From NCBI GenBank assembly GCA_016184145.1, contig JACPDF010000022.1, positions 1,542 to 65,541 of the forward strand: a stretch of 64,000 bases of DNA. The letters are read 5' to 3'. Below are positions 4,584 to 57,802 of the stretch, piece by piece; position 1 is the first letter of the stretch; each line of letters begins with the position of its first letter. The notes below the pieces were generated by a model. The model was not told the DNA's origin and searched no databases. It was given only the letters and a program-made list of their open reading frames with translations. This DNA comes from Candidatus Woesearchaeota archaeon. GTDB taxonomy: Archaea > Nanobdellota > Nanobdellia > Woesearchaeales > GW2011-AR4. A program made the position numbers and the translations under genes.

Positions 4584-6092
4584 ATGAATATGATGGAAAC
4601 TTGGATGGAAAAAATAGGTGGACTGGGAATTTTTACATCTCCACGAAACTTTAAAATTTCAACTATAGACGATAGGGTATTAGCCACATTTGATAATGGT
4701 TTCGAGTTGGGGAGTATTTTTGATACTAAAGGATATAAAGAAAGCATTGATATGTTTGGGCCATGGCTATCAGAGCCGCAACTTGAGATTTCTAGAAAGT
4801 TTGAGGAATATACCCAGGAACTTTTTAAAAAATTGGGGCCAAGGAGATATAGCGGATTGCCCTCTTATTCTCATGTGCTGGATAATGCCAGCATTGGCTT
4901 TGAGAACTCAAAAGCTGCACAAATCCCATTAGACTTTATCATAATGCTGGATAAAATTGGGCATGATAATATTGAAATCCATGAAAATATAATGGATTTA
5001 TTAAACCAATATGAAACTGAGTTAATCCAGGGGAGATTAGATAAAGCAGCAGAAATAGGTAGAAAATTAAGAGCCGAAAGAATATCATTAAAAGGTAATA
5101 TTGATGGCAGGCTATTAAGATATTTGATGGAGACCAGAACGAAAGGGAGTGAAAAAGAGGCTTTAAGAAGAGATATTGTATCCGCAACAAAGATTATTTA
5201 TGATTTAACAAGGTTCTCAGACGCTTGGCCCTACCCGTTGTCTATGGGTATACAGTTCGGAAGGAAAAGAAACGAGGATTTGGGCCTTACATTCAGGAGG
5301 ACTCCTGTAAAATTTGATGACAGGACATGTAATGTTATGGAATACAAGCGCCAACCTTTATTGGCAAGGCAGATAGAAAGGGCGTATAATGGGGGGGATG
5401 CTGGCAGAAAACTAAGGGAAATATACGGAGATGTTAACGCAAGGGCTGTTGAAATGCCAGCTGCTATTAAAGTGCAAACTGCATTTAAGAGCCTTTTCCC
5501 GCTACATTATATGAATGAAACAATGAATGAATATGGCGCCGATATTAATAATGGTAAATATGGGGACAGGACCAAGCAATTATTTTGGCTGGCTATGCAG
5601 AGCAAAAAAAGGGTGGTTGAGAAAACTTTAGGGCTGTTGGAGTCAGCAGTCAAATTTTATGAAGGCGGCAATATTCCAGAAGGGGTAAAGGAAGCAATTG
5701 ACAGGGACATAAAGCACAAGAGAAAAACAAGTTATTTTGATAAAGTTACTGATGATGGTTTTGTAGAGCCTTGGATTGTATATGATGTAGCCGGAAGGGG
5801 TTATATAGAAGCGTTAGACAGGTCCCAGGATAGAAGGGTTGTGCCATACAGGGCTGCCAGAGAGCTCCAAGTTTTAATTCCGATGTCTAATCATATCTTT
5901 GACAAAGACAGCAGAATGCATATTTCTTCCGGAGATTATGATCCAAAAAAACATGATTTCTACACTTTAAAGCTCGTCCCCCAAACTTTGGCTTCTGTGA
6001 AACACGATTACTTGGATTTAGTTTCAAGGCTAAAATTCCAAACTGAAACGGAAAAAATAAGCGGTAGCAGATTGCCACTATTACTTCTTTAA
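4584..6092 (+). CDS. Large hypothetical protein (502 aa), no recognisable motifs; first gene of the atypical-composition island
   Basis: Long ORF with a GGGGGT Shine-Dalgarno-like sequence upstream of the ATG and a TATA-like tttatata in its upstream region. Arg codons are dominated by AGA/CGN, unlike the AGG-rich core genes. No Walker A motif or nuclease motif found. Confidence 0.6.
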   Translation: MNMMETWMEKIGGLGIFTSPRNFKISTIDDRVLATFDNGFELGSIFDTKGYKESIDMFGPWLSEPQLEISRKFEEYTQELFKKLGPRRYSGLPSYSHVLDNASIGFENSKAAQIPLDFIIMLDKIGHDNIEIHENIMDLLNQYETELIQGRLDKAAEIGRKLRAERISLKGNIDGRLLRYLMETRTKGSEKEALRRDIVSATKIIYDLTRFSDAWPYPLSMGIQFGRKRNEDLGLTFRRTPVKFDDRTCNVMEYKRQPLLARQIERAYNGGDAGRKLREIYGDVNARAVEMPAAIKVQTAFKSLFPLHYMNETMNEYGADINNGKYGDRTKQLFWLAMQSKKRVVEKTLGLLESAVKFYEGGNIPEGVKEAIDRDIKHKRKTSYFDKVTDDGFVEPWIVYDVAGRGYIEALDRSQDRRVVPYRAARELQVLIPMSNHIFDKDSRMHISSGDYDPKKHDFYTLKLVPQTLASVKHDYLDLVSRLKFQTETEKISGSRLPLLLL

Positions 6093-11742: not shown

Positions 11743-12828
11743 TTGTATTTTTATAAAATGCCTAAAAAGAATAATTTTCCTATGAGGAAGGTAAGAGAAG
11801 GCTCTGCCGAGGTATTCATACCGACAGAGGAAAAGATATCAAAAGAGCTTCCTGTGTTCTACAATCCTGCAATGAAATTAAACAGGGATATTTCCATACT
11901 ATTGTTGCAGCAATTTCCTTCTATGAATATATGCGATTTGCTGGCTGGAACCGGAATCAGGGCTATAAGGATGGCCAAGGAGCTAAAGCATAAATCAATA
12001 GCAGCCAATGACAACAGCAAAAAAGCATTTGAGCTGATAAAGGAAAATATGAGGCTAAATAAAGTAAAATTTAGCGTCCATAATGAGGATGCGAACAGGT
12101 TTTTGCTGAATTCAAAAGGATTTGATTATATCGATGTTGATCCTTTTGGCTCCTCAAATTTTTTCCTTGATGCCGCAGTAAAAAGGATTTCAAGGAACGG
12201 CATTTTGGCTGTGACGAACACAGACACAGCAGCCCTTACCGGGACTTACCCTAAAGCATGCATAAGGAAATACTGGGCTACGCCGAAAAGGGATTATATG
12301 ATGCACGAAACGGGCCTGAGGATTTTGATAAGGAGAGTGCAATTGATAGGAATGCAGTATGAAAAAGCCTTGATTCCGATATTTTCCTATTATAAGGACC
12401 ATTATCTGAGGATTTTCTTTAAATGCATTAAGGGAAAGAAGGAATGCGATAAAGTTGCAGAGCAGCATGGCGTGCTCAATAATGCCGGGCCTTTGTGGCT
12501 AGGCATATTATGGGACAAAAAATTAGCCGACAAAATTTATCGTAAAACAATAGGAAATAAAATAATAAAAATCAATGATAATAAAAGCTATGATGAGCTG
12601 TTGAAATTCCTGAAAATAATAAAAGAAGAGTCAAAAATAAATGCTGCAGGATTTCATGATATACATGAGGCAGCAAAGGAAAAAAAATTAAAAGTGCTGA
12701 TGAAGAAAGAAGATTTAATCAGGAAAATAAGGAAGATAGGCTATAAGGCTGCTTCCACCCATTTTTCAGGGACGGGAATAAGGACGGATATTGACTACAA
12801 GAGATTTTTAGCCCTGTTAAAGGGATAG
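11743..12828 (+). CDS. trm1: tRNA (guanine26-N2)-dimethyltransferase Trm1
   Basis: REGSAEVFIP...PVFYNPAMKLNRDISIL...DLLAGTGIRAIRMA pattern and a length of about 360 aa match archaeal Trm1. Confidence 0.85.
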   Translation: MYFYKMPKKNNFPMRKVREGSAEVFIPTEEKISKELPVFYNPAMKLNRDISILLLQQFPSMNICDLLAGTGIRAIRMAKELKHKSIAANDNSKKAFELIKENMRLNKVKFSVHNEDANRFLLNSKGFDYIDVDPFGSSNFFLDAAVKRISRNGILAVTNTDTAALTGTYPKACIRKYWATPKRDYMMHETGLRILIRRVQLIGMQYEKALIPIFSYYKDHYLRIFFKCIKGKKECDKVAEQHGVLNNAGPLWLGILWDKKLADKIYRKTIGNKIIKINDNKSYDELLKFLKIIKEESKINAAGFHDIHEAAKEKKLKVLMKKEDLIRKIRKIGYKAASTHFSGTGIRTDIDYKRFLALLKG

Positions 12829-14332: not shown

Positions 14333-15430
14333 CTAATTTATTGCAGAAATGATGTTTTCCTCTTCATTTATTTCAAAAGTTTTCCCAAAAAATTTTTCTA
14401 TTGCGTAAATGTTTGTTTTTGCATGGCTAGTTATTGATGAGGTTCTAATTGCGCTATTGCCTACTAGGACCATGAATTTTAATATCTGGTCCGCAAGGTG
14501 CTTATCAGCAGCAGCTTTGCTCTCTATCTCCCTAATTAGATTATTTGCCGTCTCTGCCCCTACAATTTCAGCTTTCTTTCCTCTTTCTCCTAAGGCATCT
14601 GCCCCTAGCCTTATGGGATTCCATATATTAATTTCGTCCTTATTTTTCGAAAAAATTGCCCATATGGTTATTCCTGAGCCAGTTGACAATGCCTCATTAT
14701 ACTCAATCTGGATATTTACGGGACAGCCATAATTCTTTAAGCATATTTCTGCGGATTTTGCCTGCCGCTCCGCGACATTTGCATTCTGCAAATCCGCAGA
14801 TGCATGGGATATGCCTTTTATTTGAATCAAATGCCCTTGCTCCATCAGGCTGATTTTCGGGGCATTTTCTTTTAGATAGTTATGGAATTCTTCAAAATTA
14901 TTGAAATCTGATATTTTGTATTTTGGCTTTATTTTTAATTCCACCCTGCCATTGCCTTTTGGGTAATAGCCGCGCTTGAGCAATCTGCATTCTATGCTTG
15001 CATATTTCTGCAGCTGGGGCAAAAAAACTTCTTTGAAATAGTCTATCGGAGCTGCCCATTTTCCGTCTGTGCCTCCAGTTATATTTAACTTTACAGGCTT
15101 GTTTGCAAACATTGACGGCAGCAAAATTGACTGCAAAAAAAGAGAAATACTTCCAGCGGTTTGGATGTCTATTTCTATTGTTTTTCCTTCTATTTTTCCA
15201 GGGGAGTATCTTAGCCTTGTAGAGCCCAAGTAAGCTCCTTCTGCCTTTGCATTGCATAATTTTTCCAGGGCTTTTATGCAGAATAAATGCTGGCTCTTAA
15301 GGCCTGGCTGCGGCCTGTTTTTCCTTATATCAGCTATTTCAAAGGGCTTTTGGGTTATTGTTGACAAAGCAAGAGCTACGCGGGCTATTGAGCCGCCTCC
15401 TTCAAGATACGAACCATCCAATTCAATCAT
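14333..15430 (-). CDS. rtcA: RNA 3'-terminal phosphate cyclase
   Basis: N-terminus IELDGSYLEGGGSIARVALALSTITQKPFEI... with a length of about 365 aa. Confidence 0.85.
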   Translation of the reverse strand: MIELDGSYLEGGGSIARVALALSTITQKPFEIADIRKNRPQPGLKSQHLFCIKALEKLCNAKAEGAYLGSTRLRYSPGKIEGKTIEIDIQTAGSISLFLQSILLPSMFANKPVKLNITGGTDGKWAAPIDYFKEVFLPQLQKYASIECRLLKRGYYPKGNGRVELKIKPKYKISDFNNFEEFHNYLKENAPKISLMEQGHLIQIKGISHASADLQNANVAERQAKSAEICLKNYGCPVNIQIEYNEALSTGSGITIWAIFSKNKDEINIWNPIRLGADALGERGKKAEIVGAETANNLIREIESKAAADKHLADQILKFMVLVGNSAIRTSSITSHAKTNIYAIEKFFGKTFEINEEENIISAIN

Positions 15431-25619: not shown

Positions 25620-26603
25620 TTGCCAAGGAGAATGGCAATTGCGCTGAATGTTTTCCAGGAGCAGAAGGATTTAAAGGAGAAGAAGAGGCATAATGAGGGC
25701 TATAGGCTGGTTGGGAATCATTCTGCAGTCAAAATATGCGGTTACTGCAAGAAATCAATAAAGGGGGAGGATGTCTGCTATAAGAATACCTTTTATGGAA
25801 TAGAGAGCTGGAGATGCATCCAGATGTCTCCTACATTCTTTTGCGACCATAGATGCGTTTTCTGCTGGAGAGACATAGATTATGTATGGCCAAAATGGCA
25901 AGGGCCAATAGATAATCCCAATGAGATAGTGGATAATGCTATAAAAGCACATGTCGAGCTTTTGCAGGGATTTAAGGGAAACCCAAAATCTGTTGAAGAA
26001 AAGCTTAAGGCCATGGAAAAGCCCCTGCATTTTGCAATTTCCTTGACTGGAGAGCCGACAATGTATCCTAGGCTGCCGGAAATGATTGACTACATAAAGG
26101 AAAAAGGAATGACTGCTTTTTTGGTTACTAATGGGACTATTCCGGAGATGGTTGAGAAATTGATTGATCACCAGCCGACACAGCTTTATATTTCTGTCTA
26201 TGGTACTAACAAAGAGATGCATCAACGTACAGCTAACCCGATAACAAAAGATGCGTGGGAAAGACTGCAAAAATCATTGTCTATGATGCACAAGTTCAAC
26301 AGGAATGTCATGAGGCTGACTTTAGTAAGAGGATTTAATTTCATGGATCCAGAAGGGTATGCAAAGCTTGCTGAAAAATACAATCCTATGTTTATTGAGG
26401 CAAAAGGTTTTGCCTTCGTTGGACACAGTCAAGAACGTTTAGAAGTGCATAATATGCCGTATCATCATGAAATAATGGAATTCGCCAAAAAGATAGAAGA
26501 AAACTCGTCTTATAAGGTAATTGACAGCAAAGCGGAGAGCAAAGTTGCTTTGTTGGTTAAGGAAGATTTTGAAGGAAGGAAGATGAATTTTGGAGGGTTG
26601 TAA
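25620..26603 (+). CDS. taw1: tRNA 4-demethylwyosine synthase (radical SAM, Taw1/TYW1)
   Basis: YRLVGNHSAVKICGYC near the N-terminus and the radical SAM cluster CDHRCVFC; about 327 aa, typical of archaeal Taw1. Confidence 0.8.
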   Translation: MPRRMAIALNVFQEQKDLKEKKRHNEGYRLVGNHSAVKICGYCKKSIKGEDVCYKNTFYGIESWRCIQMSPTFFCDHRCVFCWRDIDYVWPKWQGPIDNPNEIVDNAIKAHVELLQGFKGNPKSVEEKLKAMEKPLHFAISLTGEPTMYPRLPEMIDYIKEKGMTAFLVTNGTIPEMVEKLIDHQPTQLYISVYGTNKEMHQRTANPITKDAWERLQKSLSMMHKFNRNVMRLTLVRGFNFMDPEGYAKLAEKYNPMFIEAKGFAFVGHSQERLEVHNMPYHHEIMEFAKKIEENSSYKVIDSKAESKVALLVKEDFEGRKMNFGGL

Positions 26604-34645: not shown

Positions 34646-35881
34646 TTACACCAGCCTTATATCATTTACATTATTCTTTACATTAGAAGCCTTTACCAGG
34701 GTTTTTATCAGGGTTTTTGCGTCTGCAAACTTCCTTTTTCCTGCTGCAAAGAGCCTTTTTCCTTTTACAAAGGTCTTTTTATGCTTTTTTTTGAATGCCA
34801 AAGCGTGCTTTTCATTTTTTACAGGAGGCCCGATAATTTCCACTTGCGTTGGAAGCTTGGTGTCTTTTAATGCATAATAAAATAAAGAATTTGGAGCATG
34901 CCACATCATATCGCTTTCCACTACCTTGAAGCCGCACCTCACCAATTCGTTTTCAATATAATGGAAAGCCTTCAGCATCTTTGCCCCTGCAACATCTGTC
35001 TTTTTCTTTAATGGCATAACATTTAGCATTACAAGATTACTGCCGAATTCCTTCCTGATGTCCTGCTCTGTAAGGGCTTTTACCTCGAAAAATTCCTTTG
35101 ACGGCTTTTTCAGAAATTCCCTGGCCTTGTGCTTTATAATCTCAAATTTTTCATGGTCCAAAGCAGCAGCAGCATTCCTGTCCTTCTGCACAGGGTCTAT
35201 AACAATGATGGGGCTTGTAAGCTTTGACTGGTTTATTTCGGAAAAAATATTTTTTCCCTTGTAATAGCCTTTAATGTCAATAACTTCCTTGTCCTTCCAT
35301 TTCGCGATTGCCTTAATGAGGGCTAAAAAAGAGCCGTAATAGATTGTAATTATCTCACACACATAGCCACTAAAGCCGCGGATGTAGCTTTCGGCGCCGT
35401 AAACTTTTGCTGCCTTGAAGAACTGTTTTGTGAGCCTAATCTCATCGTTCAGCTTTTTGTGTTTAAGGACGAAGTCTGAATGCAACGGAGAGACATCAGT
35501 TATATTTTTTGCCTGCTCTGCCTTCCTTATATCCAGTATAGGGACTATCTCAAAGGTAAATTTTCCTTCTTTTATCTGGAAATAGTCCCTTGAACCGTGC
35601 AATCTTCTTATCTTGAAATGCTTTTTGAGAAAATCTCCAAGAATATCTGAAAGCTGGTCGCTTTTATCCTTAAATATTTCATAGTTGAATTTTACAAAGA
35701 TGTCGGCATCAAAGGTCTTTAGCCATGTGTCTTTTGCCCCAGAGCCTCCAAGAACAGCTTTTGCGTGCCTTAATCCGGAATTTATCTTTTTAATCAGGCT
35801 GTCTGCCTTACCAAAAATCTCTTTTTCGTATTTGCTGTCCGGTCTTATTTTCCTTATAACTTCTGAGAGCAGCTTTTTCAT
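34646..35881 (-). CDS. cca: CCA-adding tRNA nucleotidyltransferase (archaeal class I)
   Basis: LLSEVIRKIRPD...AVLGGSGAKDTWLKTFDADIFVKF pattern; about 410 aa. Start taken at MKKLLSEV. Confidence 0.8.
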   Translation of the reverse strand: MKKLLSEVIRKIRPDSKYEKEIFGKADSLIKKINSGLRHAKAVLGGSGAKDTWLKTFDADIFVKFNYEIFKDKSDQLSDILGDFLKKHFKIRRLHGSRDYFQIKEGKFTFEIVPILDIRKAEQAKNITDVSPLHSDFVLKHKKLNDEIRLTKQFFKAAKVYGAESYIRGFSGYVCEIITIYYGSFLALIKAIAKWKDKEVIDIKGYYKGKNIFSEINQSKLTSPIIVIDPVQKDRNAAAALDHEKFEIIKHKAREFLKKPSKEFFEVKALTEQDIRKEFGSNLVMLNVMPLKKKTDVAGAKMLKAFHYIENELVRCGFKVVESDMMWHAPNSLFYYALKDTKLPTQVEIIGPPVKNEKHALAFKKKHKKTFVKGKRLFAAGKRKFADAKTLIKTLVKASNVKNNVNDIRLV

Positions 35882-35982
35882 GCATTTTTGTTGTCTATGT
35901 CCATATAAAAACATTTGTGTTTTTGCAATTTCAATTTAAATTAGAAGACAAGGGTTAGCCTGCTAGACAGAAGCGAAAAAGA

Positions 35983-44013: not shown

Positions 44014-44220
44014 ACTTATATTTGATTTTAATTTCTACTTTTTTTCTAATTTTAATCTGCTCTGCAATTCTAGTGCGAGGCGTCGCTTTCTGGGCATGCA
44101 CAAAAATCGGGGATTTTTTGGCATCCTGAAAATTCCCAATTTTCATGATATCGCTCCGCCTCGGTTATTTATTTGATTTAGCAATGTTTTTAAATTGAAT
44201 ATTGATTCTTGAAGCCTTAT

Positions 44221-44390
44221 GCGGAGGTGCCGGAGTGGCCAAACGGGATAGACTCAAGGCATTTGAATGTTGAGTGCTCATAATGAGTGCGATGATAAAA
44301 ATCATTTGTAAGTCATCTATTGGCTTAGTGCCTACGCAGGTAATTATTAAGCACTGCTTGATAATCTGCAATCGAATCCTGTCCTCCGCA
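44221..44390 (+). tRNA. tRNA-Leu (anticodon CAA), class II, apparently with two introns: a canonical one next to the anticodon and one in the T-loop
   Basis: Acceptor gcggagg pairs with cctccgc plus discriminator a. D-stem ccg/cgg with D-loop gagtggccaaa. Anticodon stem ataga/tctat, loop ctCAAgg. Variable arm ggc-ttagt-gcc. T-stem gcagg pairs with cctgt. An insert of about 56 nt lies between 44259 and 44315 and an insert of about 30 nt lies inside the T-loop (44342..44371). Confidence 0.7.
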
Positions 44391-45940: not shown

Positions 45941-47275
45941 ATGCGGATGATTGAAATTTATGCAGTAGGCGGCTATAATGAAATAGGAAAGAACTGCACT
46001 GCAATCAAGGTTGATGATGAGGTTGTTATTATTGACTTGGGCATCCATCTGGAAAGCTACATCAAGCTTACAGAGGATGAGGACATTGTAAATATAAACC
46101 CGGAGAAGCTAATGAAAGTAGGGGCAATCCCGGATATTTCTATCCTGAACAAAATTATGGATAAGGTAAAGGCAGTCATAATAAGCCATGCCCATCTTGA
46201 CCATTTAGGAGCTGTTCCGTATCTTGCAGACAAGTTTGATGCTCCGATAATAGGGACTCCTTTTACAATTGAAGTTATAAGAGCCATATTAAGGGATGAT
46301 AAGATAAGCCTAAAGAATAAAATAATAACCCTAAACTCAAATTCTTCCTATGACATCTCCAAGAACATAAAAGTGGAATTTATACACATTACCCATTCCA
46401 CGCCGCAAACAGCCTTGGTGGCAATACATACAAAATACGGGACAATACTTTATGCCAACGATTTTAAGCTGGACATGCATCCTGTCCTTGGAAAAAAGCC
46501 GAATTTCAAGAGGCTGCAGGAGCTTGGAAAGGAGAATGTTATTGCCTTAATAGTCGAGTCAACTTACGCAAAAGACGCAAAAAAGATGCCTTCTGAAAGC
46601 GTTGCAAAAGAGATGTTGAGGGAGGCTATGCTGGAGACAGAAAACAAGAACAACATAATATTAGTAACTACATTTTCATCGCATATAGCAAGGCTAAAGT
46701 CAGTAATAGAGTTTGGGAAAAAGCTCAACAGGAAAGTTATTTTCATGGGAAGGTCGCTGGCAAAGTATGCAAAGGCTGCTGAAAATGTGGGTTTAGTGAA
46801 TTTCTCAAAAGATGTGGAGATGGTTAAGTACGGAAAGCAGATAAAAAAAAAGCTTAAAAAGATTGAGAAGGAAAGGGAAAAGTATGTCCTGGCTGTTACC
46901 GGGCATCAAGGAGAGCATAAATCTGTACTGTACAGGATGATGAGGGGCGAGCTTGGATTTAGGCTGCATCCAGAGGATAACGTGATATTCTCATGCAAAG
47001 TGATCCCAACACCTACAAACATAGCAAACAGGGAAGCGCTTGAAAATGAGCTAAGGCAGCTTGGCATAAGGGTTTTTAGGGATGTGCACCAGTCAGGGCA
47101 TGCTGCAAGAGAGGACTTGAGGGATTTCATAGGGCTCGTAAAGCCAAAGAAAGTGATTCCTGCGCATGGGAATAAGGAGATGAAAGAGGCCCTGGCAGAT
47201 CTTGCAACTGAGATGGGCTATAAAATGGAAAAGAGCATATTCCTGGTAAAAGACGGGCATAAGGTTGCTATATAA
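45941..47275 (+). CDS. rnj: Ribonuclease J (metallo-beta-lactamase / beta-CASP family)
   Basis: HxHxDH motif IISHAHLDHLGAVPY, beta-CASP motifs, and the C-terminal HQSGHAARED; 444 aa. Confidence 0.8.
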   Translation: MRMIEIYAVGGYNEIGKNCTAIKVDDEVVIIDLGIHLESYIKLTEDEDIVNINPEKLMKVGAIPDISILNKIMDKVKAVIISHAHLDHLGAVPYLADKFDAPIIGTPFTIEVIRAILRDDKISLKNKIITLNSNSSYDISKNIKVEFIHITHSTPQTALVAIHTKYGTILYANDFKLDMHPVLGKKPNFKRLQELGKENVIALIVESTYAKDAKKMPSESVAKEMLREAMLETENKNNIILVTTFSSHIARLKSVIEFGKKLNRKVIFMGRSLAKYAKAAENVGLVNFSKDVEMVKYGKQIKKKLKKIEKEREKYVLAVTGHQGEHKSVLYRMMRGELGFRLHPEDNVIFSCKVIPTPTNIANREALENELRQLGIRVFRDVHQSGHAAREDLRDFIGLVKPKKVIPAHGNKEMKEALADLATEMGYKMEKSIFLVKDGHKVAI

Positions 47276-57262: not shown

Positions 57263-57802
57263 TTGATGAGACTTTTCATAGCTTTTGATGTTCCTGATGA
57301 TGTAAAGGAGTACATGGCTCGCATACAGGGCATTATAGGGGACAATCTGGCTGAAATAAGATGGGTAAAGAAAGAGCAAATGCATTTAACATTAAAGTTT
57401 CTTGGGGAAGTGCAGCCAAATGCAGCAGATAAAATAAAGGATGAATTAAGAAAAATAAGATTTGACTCTTTTACTGTTTATTTGAACTCCATAGGGGTTT
57501 TTCCCAATGAAAATTATATAAGGGTTGTATGGGTTGGCTTGGAGCCGGAAGACAAGATTATAGGGCTGCAACGGAGCATTGATGAAAATCTCAAGGAATT
57601 CTTCAAAAAAGAAAAGGATTTCAAAGCCCACATAACATTGGGAAGGGTAAAATATGTTAAGAACAAAGAGCAGTTTTTAAGCAAATTAAAGGGCATAAAA
57701 GTTGAAAAGAAAAATTTTAGAGTAGATAAGTTCAAGCTCATGAAAAGCACCTTGACAATGCAAGGGCCTCTTTATGAAGCGGTTGAGGAATTCGGGCCGT
57801 AG
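57263..57802 (+). CDS. thpR: RNA 2',3'-cyclic phosphodiesterase (2H family, ThpR/LigT)
   Basis: Two HxTx motifs, HLTLKF and HITLGR; about 180 aa. Confidence 0.8.
   Translation: MMRLFIAFDVPDDVKEYMARIQGIIGDNLAEIRWVKKEQMHLTLKFLGEVQPNAADKIKDELRKIRFDSFTVYLNSIGVFPNENYIRVVWVGLEPEDKIIGLQRSIDENLKEFFKKEKDFKAHITLGRVKYVKNKEQFLSKLKGIKVEKKNFRVDKFKLMKSTLTMQGPLYEAVEEFGP

Follow-up and report, generated by a model that had tools for sequence, protein, structure and literature searches.

Gene anatomy

At positions 44221 to 44390 on the forward strand of the window, by which we mean the whole 64-kb stretch of DNA that was analyzed (from contig JACPDF010000022.1; all coordinates are positions in this window), lies a three-exon gene for tRNA-Leu(CAA) that encodes a 170-nucleotide (nt) precursor. 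We computed here the anatomy of this gene, the geometry of its junctions, the covariation of its T-loop intron and the presence or absence of that intron among orthologues. Very likely the locus, which belongs to a Woesearchaeota (DPANN) genome, is a functional gene for tRNA-Leu(CAA) that is split by two protein-spliced introns of the bulge-helix-bulge (BHB) type and is spliced at the junctions given below.

Exon 1 (44221–44258, +) contains the 5' strand of the acceptor stem, the D arm, the 5' strand of the anticodon stem and the anticodon loop up to G37, as seen in the ARAGORN cloverleaf after intron removal. It reads GCGGAGG-UG-CCG-GAGUGGCCAAA-CGG-G-AUAGA-CUCAAG, with the anticodon CAA at 44255–44257 (+), and is followed by intron 1 (44259–44314, +), 56 nt at the canonical 37/38 site. 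Exon 2 (44315–44341, +) starts with A38 and continues with the 3' strand of the anticodon stem, the variable arm, the T-stem strand GCAGG and T54 (A-UCUAU-U-GGC-UUAGU-GCC-UAC-GCAGG-U), after which intron 2 (44342–44371, +) inserts 30 nt between T-loop positions 54 and 55. Exon 3 (44372–44390, +) holds T-loop positions 55–60, the second T-stem strand, the 3' acceptor strand and A73 (UCGAAU-CCUGU-CCUCCGC-A).

The acceptor strands of the gene are GCGGAGG/CCTCCGC with A as the discriminator, the D arm has a 3-bp stem (CCG/CGG) and an 11-nt loop, and the long variable arm is GGC-TTAGT-GCC. The 5' strand of the anticodon stem, ATAGA at 44248–44252, finds its partner TCTAT 56+1 nt downstream. The T-stem strands GCAGG (44336–44340) and CCTGT (44378–44382) are 37 nt apart in the gene and the insert between them contains a hairpin (ATTATTAAGC/GCTTGATAAT). 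No CCA end is encoded. A preliminary description of this DNA had proposed a class II tRNA-Leu(CAA) of 170 nt in which the matching anticodon strand comes about 56 nt late and about 30 nt, folded as a hairpin between the separated strands GCAGG and CCTGT, have to be removed from the T-loop. All the elements that it listed were found where it had placed them, and the two introns measure exactly 56 and 30 nt.

When both inserts (44259–44314 and 44342–44371) are deleted, ARAGORN calls an 84-nt textbook class II tRNA-Leu(CAA), with G18G19, a UUCGAAU T-loop and A73 in its cloverleaf. The predicted junctions (^ marks a cut or a join) are GCAGGU^UCGAAUCC in the T-arm and CUCAAG^AUCUAU in the anticodon arm. 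Related tRNA-Leu loci from genome and metagenome scans are designated here by L numbers (L001–L043 and so on). The spliced product aligns without gaps to L041, an intron-less tRNA-Leu(CAA) gene, with 73 of the 84 positions identical, and the differences that fall in stems can be read as compensatory.

The T-loop intron

In a geometry scan of the 170-nt region, intron 2 is the strongest BHB candidate; the preliminary description had suggested a BHB-motif search, and the T-loop insert comes out on top of it. The central helix (H) is formed by 44336–44339 (GCAG, exon) and 44366–44369 (CUGC, intron), with four of four Watson-Crick pairs, and the two bulges, of 3 nt each, are 44340–44342 (GU^A) and 44370–44372 (AA^U). 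The inner helix (h') pairs 44343–44352 with 44356–44365 over 10 bp, while the outer helix (h) is absent, which gives the relaxed motif HBh'. The 47-nt T-arm region folds at z = −3.4 and none of 200 shuffles folds as well. In an unconstrained fold of the whole precursor the helix of intron 2 forms in place of the T-stem. Since the 5' strand of the T-stem is also the exonic half of H, the T-arm is able to form only after splicing.

An intron at 54/55 was found in seven distinct sequences: the window, L006 (the same as L034 and L043), L033, L036, L038, L039 (the same as L042) and L040. Some of these cases were added by a metagenome scan for a variable arm followed by GGT and a nucleotide other than T. 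L038 to L040 are genes for tRNA-Leu(UAG), and the 54/55 intron is thus common to Leu(CAA) and Leu(UAG). In the alignment of the seven copies 99% of the cells of the HBh' motif are paired, H (GCAG/CUGC) is invariant and five of the ten h' pairs are changed on both sides, that is, by compensatory changes; none of 500 shuffles reaches the observed values. As a control the partner strand was slid by one to three columns, and pairing falls to 24–43%. Searches by blastn-short and by a covariance model of the seven copies turned up no copy of the intron outside tRNA-Leu T-arms in the window or in 44 related loci, and therefore there is no evidence here of its spread to other tRNA families. A mirror-image BHB, in which the bulge lies 5' of the helix strand, was also considered and was dropped, as it had been judged without the two-fold symmetry of the BHB.

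Detection of the gene by tRNA finders

ARAGORN calls no tRNA anywhere in the 64-kb window, whether run in default mode or with -i, -i0,120 or -ps, and neither does Rfam at its gathering thresholds. When the local kilobase was compared with Rfam at E values up to 10, no tRNA and nothing else of relevance appeared, and a crude scan for pairs of T-arm and acceptor elsewhere in the window returned two implausible matches only. Deleting intron 1 alone gives no ARAGORN call. Deleting intron 2 alone gives a Leu(CAA) call in which the anticodon intron is misplaced. The preliminary description had named a single-intron tRNA with a different T-arm as the outcome that would speak against it, and ARAGORN yields no such solution.

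In a screen similar to SPLITS we collected excisions in which, on both strands, a 4-bp H is followed by 2 nt and then the cut, and in which an inner or outer helix measures 3 bp or more. The screen yields 119 such BHB-like candidates in about 430 nt around the gene, and a single one of the 119 single excisions rescues a tRNA call by ARAGORN in intron mode. This excision, GCAGGU^AAUUAU...CUGCAA^UCGAA, is the 30-nt T-loop insert. Together with the ARAGORN call on the spliced sequence and its alignment to L041, the result goes well beyond coincidence. The same screen, applied to 16 relatives, rescued 14 of them with excisions that include the predicted non-canonical intron. L022, L036 and L037 were rescued under a different amino-acid label, L016 gave spurious calls only, and the screen failed in L028 and L044. 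Among the relatives, at least 15 that have a second or third intron go undetected by ARAGORN, intron mode included, and Rfam also misses the gene of the window.

Orthologues and intron turnover

To find orthologues, one genome per species was searched for exact matches to a 22-mer of exon 1 (44237–44258). The 22-mer is identical in 32 loci, most of them labelled Woesearchaeota or Nanoarchaeia. Six are labelled 'uncultured Methanosarcinales' (L004, L009, L010, L016, L021, and L022) and carry a tRNA-Leu(CAA) gene of the Woesearchaeota type; for L010, L016, and L021, extended synteny with the window is seen downstream as well. Judging from these sequences, the label is probably an error of binning or taxonomy.

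In about 22 orthologues nothing interrupts the T-arm (L021, GCAGGUUCGAACCCUGC, is an example), and ARAGORN recognizes them as tRNA-Leu(CAA) genes with a single intron. One of those with an uninterrupted T-arm, L026, is identical to the spliced sequence of the window from T54 to the 3' end (TTCGAATCCTGTCCTCCGCA). Other orthologues carry an insert at another position of the T-arm: L010 has 28 nt at 53/54, and L003, L022, L025, L028, and L037 have 23–83 nt at 59/60. In all three classes of T-arm insert the junction that restores a 5-bp stem and a 7-nt loop is also the junction that has an H helix, with three of four pairs in L028 and four of four in the rest. The 54/55 and 53/54 inserts have no outer helix (HBh'), whereas in the 59/60 inserts the T-stem itself is the outer helix (hBHBh' or hBH). 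The agreement between these two independent criteria, loop restoration and the H helix, is in our view the strongest argument that the inserts are spliced introns.

Differences in introns are also seen between close neighbors. L003, from Woesearchaeota NC_groundwater_261, is syntenic with the window at ~77% nucleotide identity, lacks the 54/55 intron and has an 83-nt intron at 59/60. L036, from Hainich groundwater, is syntenic at ~80% nucleotide identity and has the 54/55 intron together with a third insertion within the 5' strand of the anticodon stem. Such differences between syntenic relatives are what would be expected of real introns and not of assembly noise. D-loop introns are found in L016, L019, L033, and L035, and L033 and L036 have three introns each. 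Among syntenic Woesearchaeota genomes at 70–80% nucleotide identity the occupied T-loop site thus varies (none, 53/54, 54/55, or 59/60), and the tRNA-Leu family of this lineage offers a good natural series for the gain and loss of non-canonical introns.

Two further observations concern these loci. The T-loops of L035, L037, and L041 read UCCGAAY, in which C replaces the near-universal U55, the position of pseudouridine-55. In addition, a structured leader occupies the ~45–70 nt directly before the tRNA 5' end in nine relatives (L003, L011, L013/L030, L016, L021, L028, L039 and possibly L004), and is not present in the window. In this leader the two acceptor strands of the tRNA are repeated, 5' strand first, on either side of a hairpin unrelated to the tRNA; a conserved pyrimidine-rich linker and then the tRNA follow, and the outer stem of the leader covaries with the downstream acceptor stem. 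In at least L003 a TATA-like box lies ~33 nt upstream of the leader's upstream acceptor copy, and the L003 promoter is homologous to that of the window. Reading the leader hairpin as an intron at 7/8 was rejected by hand, as no junction there has BHB geometry.

The anticodon intron and its kink-turn signature

The H helix of intron 1 pairs 44253–44256 (CUCA) with 44309–44312 (UAAG), that is, C32-G, U33-A, C34 opposite A and A35-U, so that three of four positions are paired and the C-A mismatch is the gap. The bulges are 44257–44259 (AG^G) and 44313–44315 (UC^A), the outer helix is the anticodon stem and h' is weak, which makes the motif hBH-like. On manual reading, L001, L002, L016, L022, L024, and L026 have UGAG in place of UAAG, which gives a perfect H of four pairs at the same junction. 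The alternative junction at 38/39, which corresponds to the loop ctCAAgg of the preliminary description, was likewise rejected by manual reading, with H at one of four pairs against three of four at 37/38. Because the BHB geometry favors 37/38, position 38 is A (A44315) and not a G after G37, and the mature loop is CUCAAGA; on this point the preliminary description has to be corrected. Every locus returned by the genome scan, for which the exon 1 22-mer of the window gene served as seed, contains intron 1, and the sequence of this intron is conserved. In L012 the intron reaches 107 nt, with an apparent nested insertion.

A kink-turn-like module lies within intron 1 at 44270–44297 (+). It is built of UU-GA, a 7-bp hairpin (44274–44280 with 44284–44290), the bulge GAU, GA, and UA, and 27 orthologues (among L001–L035) share NUGA, a hairpin of 6–7 bp, N(A/G)U, and GA. 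This order matches that of a kink-turn, with the G-A of the non-bulged strand, the C-stem, the 3-nt bulge and again G-A. The 4n-4b pair, which is the first pair of the NC-stem, is Watson-Crick in all 27 (UA in 15, AU in 10, CG in 2), a result that none of 10000 shuffles reaches, and the hairpin stem shows compensatory changes among the orthologues. The G-A dinucleotides were demanded by the search pattern and their constancy is not independent evidence. RNAalifold on a MAFFT alignment of intron 1 gave a poor consensus, with the hairpin region misaligned, and an anchored count was used instead. As a separate observation, the 83-nt 59/60 intron of L003 (~5215–5305 of that locus) has a kink-turn-like layout of its own, AUGA-GGAAUU-UUCA-AAUUCC-UCG-GA, in which 4n-4b is A opposite C.

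By sequence signature the kink-turn includes C-like and D-like boxes, (R)AUGA and NUGA respectively. On manual reading, the 7 nt upstream of NUGA can pair with A31–G37 in most Leu(CAA) orthologues, which places C34 at N+5. This guide-like complementarity, of at most 7 bp, is also seen in the divergent introns of L001 and L022, is weaker in the window, where C32 faces A, and has disappeared from L033, L035, and the introns of Leu(UAG) (L038). Manual inspection of the alignment found no second kink-turn or C'/D' box pair in any intron and no terminal RUGAUGA or CUGA pair. The Rfam C/D match (sR5, 11.5 bits, E 8.8) was dismissed as noise. Intron 1 was not filed as a C/D guide, given its one kink-turn, its complementarity of at most 7 bp and the loss of this complementarity in L033, L035, and Leu(UAG).

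One possible option is that intron 1 is an L7Ae-binding kink-turn RNA that would serve as a minimal box C/D-like guide, with a single kink-turn, for 2'-O-methylation of C34; from its sequence features we consider this a speculative and rather unlikely function. Such a guide would act in cis within the precursor, or in trans after excision and circularization, and may make intron 1 the DPANN counterpart of the tRNA-Trp intron of Euryarchaeota. In a weaker version of the same idea, the kink-turn may recruit L7Ae and shape the precursor so that the imperfect BHB is recognized. If L7Ae is bound, the kink-turn adds a protein-binding module to a DPANN tRNA intron, and the reason for the conservation of the intron 1 sequence becomes testable. 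This kink-turn is the less expected result of our analysis and the one most deserving of experiment.

Host and genomic context

The window has 38% G+C and encodes PCNA, RadA, aIF5B, an archaeal CCA-adding enzyme, ScpB, and GyrA. Based on these archaeal genes and the syntenic Woesearchaeota relatives, it comes from a Woesearchaeota (DPANN) genome. The host and its relatives are probably groundwater or marine mesophiles rather than hyperthermophiles. A TATA-like box (TTTTTAAATT, 44187–44196, +) was read from the sequence 34 nt upstream of G1 and would serve as the promoter of the gene; 26 of 45 related tRNA-Leu loci have a TATA-like box between −42 and −24, mostly at −31 to −38.

The lack of an encoded 3' CCA had been linked in the preliminary description to a gene for the CCA-adding enzyme in the window, and Pfam indeed identifies an archaeal CCA-adding enzyme at 34646–35914 (−) (tRNA_NucTransf2, 7.7e-38; CAA_C, 2.2e-12). 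Other genes of the window encode Trm1, an m2,2G methyltransferase (11743–12828, +), the RNA 3'-phosphate cyclase RtcA (14333–15430, −), a radical-SAM wyosine-formation protein similar to Taw1/TYW1 (25620–26603, +), a beta-CASP RNase J-like nuclease (45941–47275, +) and a LigT-like 2H phosphoesterase (57263–57802, +). An exact sequence look-up of the neighboring RNase J-like protein returned no record.

Proposed splicing pathway

We infer that the gene is transcribed, that EndA cuts the precursor and the exons are ligated, and that the Woesearchaeota host has an endonuclease of broad specificity; a possible order of events is as follows. Transcription would begin from the TATA-like box at −34, at most a few nucleotides upstream of G1, and would give a 170-nt precursor without a T-arm, in which GCAG pairs with CUGC inside the 30-nt insert. 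Intron 2 would then present its HBh' motif, a 4-bp helix between two 3-nt bulges capped by a 10-bp hairpin, while CUCA of the anticodon loop would pair with UAAG near the 3' end of the 56-nt intron and create an hBH-like motif stacked on the anticodon stem. The tRNA splicing endonuclease would cut two nucleotides 3' of each strand of both central helices, and in the T-arm it would have to select the BHB register over the register with a 6-bp H that RNAfold favors. A ligase of the RtcB type would join the exons, the T54-U55 join would allow the T-stem and the UUCGAAU loop to form, and the CCA-adding enzyme would complete the 87-nt tRNA.

The preliminary description had expected that a T-loop intron would need relaxed BHB recognition. 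Our data agree with this, as the T-loop junctions have BHB geometry with no outer helix (HBh'), a form that strict alpha4 or alpha'2 endonucleases reportedly cannot cut (PMC3239211, PMC5829648). These strict enzymes need the complete 3-4-3 hBHBh' motif, while enzymes of the (alpha-beta)2 and epsilon2 types cut HBh' and hBH (PMC3239211). Alpha4 enzymes with an 'L3' insert were described across DPANN and are associated with more disrupted tRNA genes (PMC5829648). Based on this general statement in the literature, Woesearchaeota may have an endonuclease of the alpha4+L3 type rather than an epsilon2 enzyme.

Alternative explanations

Several points count against a functional gene with two BHB-type introns. 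The seven 54/55 copies are related, so that the shuffle statistics overstate their independence. In the best RNAfold fold of the T-arm, H grows to 6 bp, which displaces the 5' bulge by 2 nt; the BHB conformer is one of two near-equivalent registers, which the alignment cannot tell apart because columns 6 and 9 are both U. In intron 1, H contains a C-A mismatch, the inner helix is weak and the local fold is unexceptional (z = −1.0). The 67 open reading frames of the window that were scanned (all of at least 120 amino acids) showed neither an EndA nor an RtcB domain, and therefore the enzyme side of the pathway rests on the literature. One could also suggest that the gene is disabled, that its 30-nt insert is never spliced and that Leu(CAA) tRNA is supplied by another gene. 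The locus is rejected by tRNA finders, and, as the host genome was covered by the window only, a second Leu(CAA) copy elsewhere in it is possible. Yet the exons are undamaged and line up colinearly with orthologues that have one intron or none, the BHB-compatible fold is kept by compensatory changes in seven distinct sequences and two isoacceptors, the junction of the insert alone restores a canonical T-loop, and the promoter-like box is retained, all of which makes a disabled gene very improbable.

We give equally little credence to the option that excision of the T-arm insert uses other boundaries, such as 53/54, or a non-BHB activity, which would leave a T-loop other than UUCGAAU. It would fit the preference of RNAfold for a 6-bp helix, which moves the 5' bulge, and in L006 it makes no difference to the product whether the junction is 53/54 or 54/55. 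In the window, however, the 53/54 option has an H of three of four pairs, no inner helix and an AUCGAAU loop, and only 54/55 puts both cuts two nucleotides 3' of a 4-bp helix, a rule that also fits the 53/54 and 59/60 introns of the relatives and, by manual reading, the perfect anticodon BHBs. Another hypothesis takes the inserts for group I or group II introns that splice themselves, or for mobile-element fragments. Group I introns do occur in archaea, according to a report whose text also mentions Woesearchaeota (PMC6125680). But inserts of 30 and 56 nt are far below a catalytic core of hundreds of nucleotides, Rfam gives no match to such introns at its gathering thresholds and none of relevance when E values up to 10 are admitted, and the 30-mer has no other copy in the window or in the 44 related loci outside tRNA-Leu T-arms, so that this hypothesis is scarcely tenable. 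A functional tRNA-Leu(CAA) gene with two protein-spliced introns remains the reading that we adopt in comparing the locus with known systems.

Comparison with known systems

Archaeal tRNA genes with several introns at non-canonical sites, to which the preliminary description had referred, were indeed described in Thermoproteales and in ARMAN-2 (PMC4090602, PMC4033280, PMC3239211). For DPANN, Kaneta et al. predicted the tRNAs of one Woesearchaeota genome and remarked that the incomplete tRNA sets of DPANN point to disrupted genes that escaped identification (PMC5829648). The gene of the window is a concrete case of a disrupted DPANN tRNA gene that escapes prediction, and an exon-anchored search recovers such genes.

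The anticodon intron can be compared with the intron of pre-tRNA-Trp in Haloferax and Pyrococcus, which contains a box C/D RNA; in Pyrococcus, C34 of tRNA-Leu(CAA) is targeted by trans-acting C/D sRNAs (PMC7994747). Similar to the tRNA-Trp intron, intron 1 has a kink-turn, in which NUGA resembles a D box and (R)AUGA a C box, and in most orthologues pairing of the stretch before NUGA with the anticodon loop would place C34 opposite the fifth upstream nucleotide. Unlike it, intron 1 has one kink-turn, no second box pair and complementarity of at most 7 bp.

With regard to the T-loop intron, Crenarchaeota (Thermoproteales and others) and Nanoarchaeota have up to three introns per tRNA gene, at sites that two papers give as 53/54, 56/57, 59/60 'etc.' (PMC4090602, PMC4033280). 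Position 54/55 is absent from these site lists, which end in 'etc.'. As reported there for Thermoproteales (Sugahara et al., 2008, as cited in PMC4090602 and PMC4033280), the Woesearchaeota genes have multiple introns, related species differ in them and introns are shared between isoacceptors. The two cases belong to different superphyla, and the Thermoproteales are hyperthermophiles whereas the present host is probably a mesophile.

A close parallel is ARMAN-2 (Candidatus Micrarchaeum), also of DPANN, in which pre-tRNA-Pro(GGG) has two introns in the T-loop, one at 53/54 and one at 59/60 (Fujishima et al., 2011; PMC3239211), and pre-tRNA-Cys has an hBH intron at 59/60 that is cleaved in vitro (PMC3239211). 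Both systems have T-loop introns of the BHB type and more than one intron in a gene, their motifs are relaxed and call for an endonuclease of broad specificity, and the relatives of the window carry the 53/54 and 59/60 sites of ARMAN-2. The intron of the window differs in its site, 54/55, and in its HBh' motif, which uses the 5' strand of the T-stem as the central helix and lacks an outer helix, whereas the Pro example of ARMAN-2 was drawn as a strict hBHBh'; the lineage, Woesearchaeota, differs as well. With the gene described here, a phenomenon already known from archaea gains one more example, in a lineage from which there have been hardly any descriptions of it before.

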